Assembly: GCF_016026235.1 (NCBI RefSeq)
Contig: NZ_CP065613.1
Direction: 5' to 3' (one strand)
Length of the DNA stretch: 64,000 nucleotides
Origin: Escherichia coli
GTDB lineage: Bacteria; Pseudomonadota; Gammaproteobacteria; Enterobacterales; Enterobacteriaceae
Part shown: piece by piece, positions 19,872 through 20,999 of the stretch
Position numbering within the stretch: position 1 is the first letter of the stretch
Layout: each line of letters begins with the position of its first letter
Notes under the pieces: model-generated
Seen by the model: the letters and a program-made list of their open reading frames with translations, nothing else
The model's database searches: none
Told to the model about the DNA's origin: nothing
Position numbers and translations under genes: made by a program

Positions 19872-20999
19872 TTAGAACTGGTAAACCAGACCCAGAGCTA
19901 CGATGTTATCAGTGTTGATGCCAGCGTCACGAGTGAACTGGTTGTCGTCCAGCAGGTTGATTTTGTAGTCAACATAGGTGGACATGTTTTTGTTGAAGTA
20001 GTAGGTCGCGCCAACATCAACATATTTCAGGATATCTTCGTCGTCGTAGTTACGACCATTGATGACACCCAGGTTTTTACCTTTAGACTGCAGGTAAGCC
20101 AGGGACGGACGCAGACCGAAGTCGAACTGGTACTGAGCAACAGCTTCGAAGTTCTGTGCTTTGTTCGCCCAACCCAGGGAACCTACGCGAGTTGCGTTGT
20201 AGGTCTGGGTGTACTGAGCAGCCAGATAGATGTTGTTAGCGTCGTATTTCAGACCACCAGTGTAGGTTTCAGCACGGTCGCCAGTACCGATCAGACCAGT
20301 GTTGTTCTGATCCCAGGTACGTTTGGAGCTGGAGATCGCACCACCGATACCAAAGCCTTCGTAATCATAAGTGATAGATCCGCCAACGCCGTCGCCGTTC
20401 TGACGCAGAGCTTTACGACCATTGTTGGTGATGCCATGACCAGTGAAATCCGGATCATTTTCACCGCTTACGCTGCCATTCTGGCCCTGGTACTGAACAG
20501 CAAAGTTCAGGCCATCAACCAGACCGAAGAAGTCAGTGTTACGGTAGGTCGCGAAGCCGTTACCACGCTGCTGCATGAAGTTGTCAGAACCGTAAGTGTC
20601 GCCACCGAATTCTGGCAGTACGTCGGTCCAGGAAGTTACGTCGTAAACTACGCCGTAGTTACGACCATAGTCGATAGAACCGATGTCCTGGAATTTAAGA
20701 CCAGCAAATGCCACACGGGTCCAGGAGTTGTTTTCGCTTTCCGGAGCGTTGCCCTGGATCTGATATTCCCACTGGCCGTAACCGGTCAGCTGGTCAGTAA
20801 CCTGAGTTTCACCTTTGAAGCCAAGACGCATGTAGGTCTGGTCGCCATCTACAGACTTGTCGTCAGAGAAATAGTGCAGGCCGTCTACTTTACCGTACAG
20901 ATCTAATTTGTTGCCGTCTTTGTTGTAAACTTCAGCAGCGTTTGCTGCGCCTGCTACCAGCAGAGCTGGGACCAGGAGGGACAGTACTTTAACTTTCAT
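19872..20999 (-). CDS. ompC: Outer membrane porin OmpC (375 aa allele)
   Basis: N-terminus [37 protein letters not shown] and C-terminal ...ALGLVYQF match OmpC. Confidence 0.95.

Follow-up and report, generated by a model that had tools for sequence, protein, structure and literature searches.

OmpC porins form trimers that conduct solutes, and their expression rises at high osmolarity. In this work we focused on the ompC gene of an Escherichia coli strain (contig NZ_CP065613.1), which lies in a stretch of 64,000 nucleotides, hereafter called the window. Its product counts 375 amino acids and that of K-12 367, which raises the question of where the additional residues lie, how the allele arose and what it may change in the porin and at its surface. 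A first-pass annotation, made from the letters of the window, had read the open reading frame (ORF) as an OmpC allele whose differences from K-12 are concentrated in predicted surface loops. We compared the gene and its product with K-12, with other natural alleles and with solved structures. With a very high degree of confidence, we regard the gene as the normal chromosomal ompC of a very near relative of E. coli FDAARGOS_943 (NZ_CP065615.1), in the form of a known mosaic allele predicted to encode a functional trimeric general-diffusion porin with a K-12-like pore and altered surface loops.

Methods

The K-12 reference was ompC from NC_000913.3 (367 amino acids), and its product was aligned globally with the OmpC of the window. 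The comparison with the OmpC of strain CFT073 was made at the protein level, using the sequence of PDB entry 2XE1. A small sample of 12 alleles was used for the dN/dS and mosaic analyses. The structure of the window OmpC was predicted with AlphaFold2 from an alignment of 63 diverse porins obtained by a representative search, and the resulting model had a mean pLDDT of 90.5. Region boundaries were taken from the DSSP strands of this predicted model. For loop L7 the published definition (PMC5056734, S2 Table; the loops are also given in S1 Fig) was used instead, because the DSSP strands of the model extend into the long L7 hairpin.

Results and Discussion

Identity of the gene and its locus

The window carries an intact OmpC-family gene at its native locus, with a pore lining identical to that of K-12 and a nearly identical upstream region. 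The ORF lies on the minus strand (19872..20999), starts with ATG and encodes 375 amino acids; it corresponds to RefSeq protein WP_000865544.1 and is named ompC in the annotation of the source genome. The first-pass annotation was right to call this 375-residue ORF OmpC, and the four peptide segments that it quoted are found verbatim in the translation. The gene order ada-apbE-ompC-micF-rcsD is that of K-12, with apbE and ada on the left and micF and rcsD on the right. The small RNA gene micF, the usual divergent neighbour of ompC, was located at 21333..21426 on the plus strand (Rfam RF00033, 116.8 bits for a gathering score of 79). At the other end, a consensus scan alone placed a terminator-like hairpin followed by a T-run at 19834..19853 on the minus strand, 18 nt past the ompC stop codon.

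The protein scored 756.5 bits with the NCBIfam model NF007841 'porin OmpC', for a cut-off of 484, and matched Pfam PF00267 (Porin_1) with 467.6 bits. Its signal peptide (residues 1-21; 20937..20999, minus strand), identical to that of K-12 in the alignment, is predicted to be cleaved, and the mature chains in OmpC crystal structures begin at residue 22, with AEVYN. Together with this predicted signal peptide, the aromatic C-terminus VYQF would be suited to insertion into the outer membrane. As the Porin_1 fold is common to all of these proteins, we also asked whether the gene might be a degenerate copy, or a paralogous or prophage-borne porin gene of the ompF, phoE, ompN or nmpC type. The OmpF and PhoE models remained below their cut-offs on the window protein, however (475.5 bits for a cut-off of 583 and 450.9 for 599, respectively). 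In addition, apbE and micF/rcsD flank the gene just as they flank ompC in K-12, the frame is intact and the product is 97% identical to a crystallised OmpC. Locus, model scores and intact frame led us to reject this reading, whose probability we consider vanishingly small.

Membership of the OmpC family is also reflected by the chromosomal position apbE-ompC-micF-rcsD combined with an OmpR-regulated upstream region. The 5' leader and the region of the promoter and OmpR sites (21000..21200, minus strand) are nearly identical to K-12, with one mismatch at 21151 and another at 21204, just beyond the region; over the 500 nt upstream of ompC, 3 positions differ from K-12. Position 21151, which we take to lie inside the OmpR C2 site, is C in the window and T in K-12, in FDAARGOS_943 and in three other genomes. 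In the sense of ompC, the change reads from GATAAATG to GATGAATG. Of the 5317 complete genomes with a match to the 61-mer around it, a single one had the exact sequence. The C1-site oligonucleotide of PMC2586830 matches the window up to the base preceding 21151, which is thus immediately 3' of the oligonucleotide.

Differences from K-12 OmpC

The global alignment comprised 375 columns, of which 345 were identical and the remaining 30 consisted of 22 substitutions and 8 inserted residues. The two genes share the same ATG, and their products the same 21-residue signal peptide, and the difference between 375 and 367 amino acids is therefore internal: four of the extra residues are in L4 (DPD plus H) and four in L7 (GVIN), no other loop being longer. 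The first-pass annotation had allowed for the length being an artefact of a wrong upstream start codon. Only the length difference itself speaks for this, and the shared start and internal insertions speak against it, as do the other natural alleles sampled, which range from 363 to 376 amino acids and share the same start. We rejected it on the basis of the alignment and consider it extremely improbable.

The extracellular loops L1, L2, L4, L5 and L7 account for 20 of the 22 substitutions and for each of the 8 inserted residues, in agreement with the concentration in surface loops noted at first pass. The loops make up 38% of the mature protein, and the nominal binomial P value of 4.6e-7 for this concentration overstates its significance, because the changes arrived as blocks. 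All loop coordinates given here are on the minus strand. L1 (residues 46-55; 20835..20864) contains two substitutions, D47N and S49D with the window residue first (DDKS versus DNKD in K-12), and no insertion. L2 (residues 83-91; 20727..20753) has kept its length and contains three substitutions (GNAPESENN versus GNSAENENN in K-12). L4 (residues 172-203; 20391..20486), of type b1 in the nomenclature of Beck et al., contains seven substitutions in addition to its four inserted residues and is the L4 of the uropathogenic (UPEC) strains 536 and CFT073. L5 (residues 227-241; 20277..20321), of type a11 as in CFT073, differs from K-12 by seven substitutions at unchanged length. L7 (residues 309-320; 20040..20075), of type e, contains one substitution and its four inserted residues, and holds the LGVING antibody epitope. 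The segments listed as different in the first-pass annotation are thus real, but the L1 difference had been missed, and its description of several segments as longer holds for L4 and L7 and not for L2 and L5, which differ by substitution only.

Outside the surface loops, the sole differences are I106 and I109 (20673..20684, minus strand). They correspond to V106 of K-12, in the periplasmic turn T2, and to F109, at the start of strand beta5. V106I and F109I (K-12 residue first) are both conservative, and of the 11 further alleles in the sample, the MDR_56 allele alone also has I109. The identity outside the loops claimed at first pass is thus not strict, because of these two residues, but with no other change in a strand or periplasmic turn, the location of the differences leaves the loop reading intact. 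The constriction loop L3 (residues 116-144; 20568..20654, minus strand) is identical to K-12 at the protein level and shows 4 synonymous changes only. The seven charged pore-lining residues K16, D18, R37, R74, D105, E109 and R124 are unchanged.

Compared with K-12 OmpC (PDB 2J1N, precursor of 367 amino acids), the window protein has thus kept the signal peptide, L3, L6, L8, the pore-lining residues and nearly all of the strand sequence, and the gene has kept its neighbourhood and upstream region, the departures being confined almost entirely to L1, L2, L4, L5 and L7.

Predicted structure and pore

The predicted model showed the series of strands expected of a sixteen-stranded beta-barrel, with L3 folded into the pore; the tip of L4 (residues 187-194) had a pLDDT below 50. 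Its best fold match in the PDB was 2XE1 (TM-score 0.95, 97% identity), which is also the nearest solved structure by sequence, and the top matches were all OmpC or OmpK36. Entry 2XE1 is the OmpC of the UPEC strain CFT073 (PMC3203869, PMC5056734).

As the barrel, L3 and the pore-lining charges are as in K-12, the passage of solutes and antibiotics should be K-12-like. From sequence identity and the predicted model taken together, we infer a K-12-like pore, and a normal osmoporin whose permeability would resemble that of K-12 OmpC and whose outer surface would resemble that of CFT073 OmpC.

A catalogued allele

The first-pass annotation had proposed typing against known ompC allele groups. In the typing scheme of Beck et al. 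2016 (PMC5056734), the loops are L4-b1 / L5-a11 / L7-e; all three loop sequences occur verbatim in the translation and match the S2 Table, and the combination is already listed, as entry 86 of the S1 Table. The exact protein is present in RefSeq as WP_000865544.1, on at least 1000 public contigs, under the name porin OmpC. At the DNA level, 11 complete E. coli genomes carry a 100% identical copy of the 1128-nt gene; they come from pigs, humans, an otter, a baboon, water and waste.

The allele and its loop-surface variant are already known, through both the RefSeq entry and the 2016 loop catalogue. An allele or loop combination presenting an unseen surface might be suspected from the 30 alignment columns that differ from K-12, and from the fact that ompC DNA at least 99% identical was found in only 60 of 5426 complete genomes (~1%). 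The exact-sequence look-up, the search of complete genomes and the published catalogue all contradict it, all the more as clinical isolate A35H, with the same three loops, has been studied experimentally (PMC5056734). Novelty was therefore rejected, and we give it next to no credence. As a discovery the allele carries little weight: the loop polymorphism of ompC, its modular recombination and its roles toward phages, contact-dependent inhibition (CDI) and antibodies are well documented, and this exact form is catalogued.

Closest relatives and mosaic origin

In the ompC interval, the window and K-12 differ by ~90 nucleotide mismatches in 1.1 kb, versus ~2-15 per 500 nt in the flanks. The relatives of the allele differ along its length. 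The CFT073 OmpC (2XE1; WP_000865543.1) has, like that of the window, a mature chain of 354 amino acids, with ~97% identity and identical L1, L2, L4 (b1) and L5 (a11). The nine substitutions between them lie in L7 (VING in the window, VVAG in CFT073), in L8 (D and N in the window, A and D in CFT073), and at I109, one strand (IGGAI) and L300 of the window, where CFT073 has F, VGAAV and V, respectively. In the 3' third, the window allele is of the O55:H7 type, whereas CFT073 has its own type. The OmpC of isolate A35H (PMC5056734) combines L4-b1 / L5-a11 / L7-e with the same L1 and L2 and also has a mature length of 354 amino acids; it differs from the window by DVGSF for DIGSI, by V for L300 and by an L8 of the CFT073 type (FTRAAGINTDD).

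The last part of the coding sequence (CDS nt 718-1128, starting at the end of L5 and running through the stop codon; 19872..20282, minus strand) is 411 nt long and 100% identical in DNA to ompC of the O55:H7 strain DEC5E (WP_000865552.1, a protein assigned to EC869 in the tables of Beck et al., PMC5056734). This module spans L6, L7 with its LGVING and L8. Over the rest of the gene, the DEC5E allele differs from that of the window, with a K-12-like L2, a type c L4 that is 8 residues shorter, and another L5 (SPLY, type a6). The OmpC of EDL933 (PDB 9WCB), related to the DEC5E allele, is likewise identical in protein to the window allele from after L5 to the C-terminus. CDS nt 1-890, for their part, match the MDR_56 allele (WP_000865545.1) at all but 8 positions; after this stretch, the MDR_56 allele diverges across L7. 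Three other genomes with the identical allele match the window perfectly only over 19492-21150, with ~1% divergence beyond.

In comparisons with five divergent alleles, synonymous divergence reached 0.40-0.54 in the five variable loops and 0.08-0.18 in the remainder of the gene, and dN/dS was 0.25-0.65 in the loops and 0.02-0.08 elsewhere. High synonymous divergence in the loops with dN/dS below 1 fits old imported modules better than recent point mutation.

These data point to a recombination mosaic of old, diverged loop-encoding modules, an origin read here from patterns in the DNA; mosaic evolution has already been described for ompC of E. coli (preprint 10.1101/2021.09.21.461324). The 5' part (first ~890 nt, UPEC-like) has the loops of the uropathogenic strains 536 and CFT073 (L4-b1, L5-a11), and a module of the O55:H7 (DEC5E) type, with L7 type e, would have supplied the last 411 nt. 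According to the literature, alleles of this kind may persist because phages, CDI toxins and antibodies recognise the surface loops.

The loop differences could instead have arisen within the gene itself, from point mutations favoured by positive selection and without imported segments. Amino-acid changes do cluster in exposed loops, and the same preprint notes that ompC had figured among positively selected genes in earlier genome scans. The dN/dS values below 1 in the loops are opposed to this, as is a synonymous divergence 3 to 5 times that of the gene remainder. Moreover, on the two sides of a junction the DNA is perfectly identical over long stretches to one allele and then to another, and the identical allele is found within flanks ~1% diverged. 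We consider in-place mutation very unlikely, and retain the mosaic of imported modules as the preferred origin.

Possible consequences for surface recognition

The L4 and L5 variants of OmpC decide the susceptibility to CDI (CdiA) from E. coli 536, to which the OmpC proteins of CFT073 and A35H conferred resistance (PMC5056734). Phage T4 binds K-12 OmpC and is unable to use O157 OmpC as a receptor (PMC5221442). In a structure of 2026 (9WCB), the central tail fibre of a phage is bound to the OmpC of EDL933. The LGVING of L7 is the main epitope, along with a second peptide of 13 residues, of the 'O157:H7-specific' monoclonal antibody 2G12 (PMC8426304), and both epitope peptides are present verbatim in the window OmpC. 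By analogy with these systems, it is plausible that the window allele alters recognition by phages, CDI or antibodies, and the first-pass annotation's cautious suggestion of a change in phage susceptibility or serum recognition agrees with this literature on related alleles.

A more specific scenario, which we regard as rather unlikely, is that UPEC-type L4/L5 combined with O55:H7-type L6-L8 could give a non-O157 strain an unusual profile. Such a strain might go unrecognised by the CDI of 536, as A35H does, and yet be bound by 'O157:H7-specific' antibodies against LGVING and perhaps by phages whose target is the L7 side of O157-type OmpC. As a second possibility, of equally low expectation, the rare C at 21151 could change how ompC responds to osmolarity.

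LGVING has been proposed as an O157:H7 marker and is nevertheless carried here, in keeping with OmpC loop modules crossing unrelated lineages by recombination. Since loop modules are shared across lineages, diagnostics or phage cocktails that rely on a single OmpC loop may cross-react or miss strains, whatever the serotype.

Other features of the window

Over positions 1-39999, the window differs from FDAARGOS_943, the closest complete genome, by 21 positions; all of these are transitions, none lies in ompC, and the C at 21151 is one of them. Full identity of the window with FDAARGOS_943 was rejected, given these 21 differences in the first 40 kb and a different content of insertion sequences.

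At 15127-15336, a tract of 210 bp takes in the 3' end of yojI and neighbouring intergenic DNA. It contains ~47 mismatches (~22%) to K-12 and three other genomes, mostly at third codon positions; the DNA around it is ~1% diverged, and FDAARGOS_943 has the same tract. This pattern suggests a short stretch acquired from a distant lineage.

At ~28013-28286 the window lacks the atoSCDAEB operon, located in K-12 between rcsC and yfaP; the three other genomes compared lack it too. The gene yfaS, of the alpha-2-macroglobulin family, is intact at 30718-35232 (4515 nt); its K-12 counterpart is a pseudogene, and that of strain 1504D004 is frameshifted.

The autotransporter gene yfaL (41350-45102) is intact and encodes 1250 amino acids. 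An IS1 copy lies ~30 bp upstream of it, at 45134-45903 (InsA ORF 45572-45847, InsB ORF 45150-45653). FDAARGOS_943 is devoid of IS1 at that place, and its yfaL is interrupted by an IS5-family element.

A 1.4-kb insertion at ~52314-53740 is absent from FDAARGOS_943 and contains two overlapping transposase-like ORFs of 318 and 177 amino acids; it adjoins or sits within a gene for an MFS transporter (ORF 51262-52305). From its size, we suspect an IS4-family element with a split transposase. Finally, the ORF of 323 amino acids at 61949-62920 has its counterpart in the ISNCY-family transposase that the annotation of FDAARGOS_943 places between yfaU and glpC.
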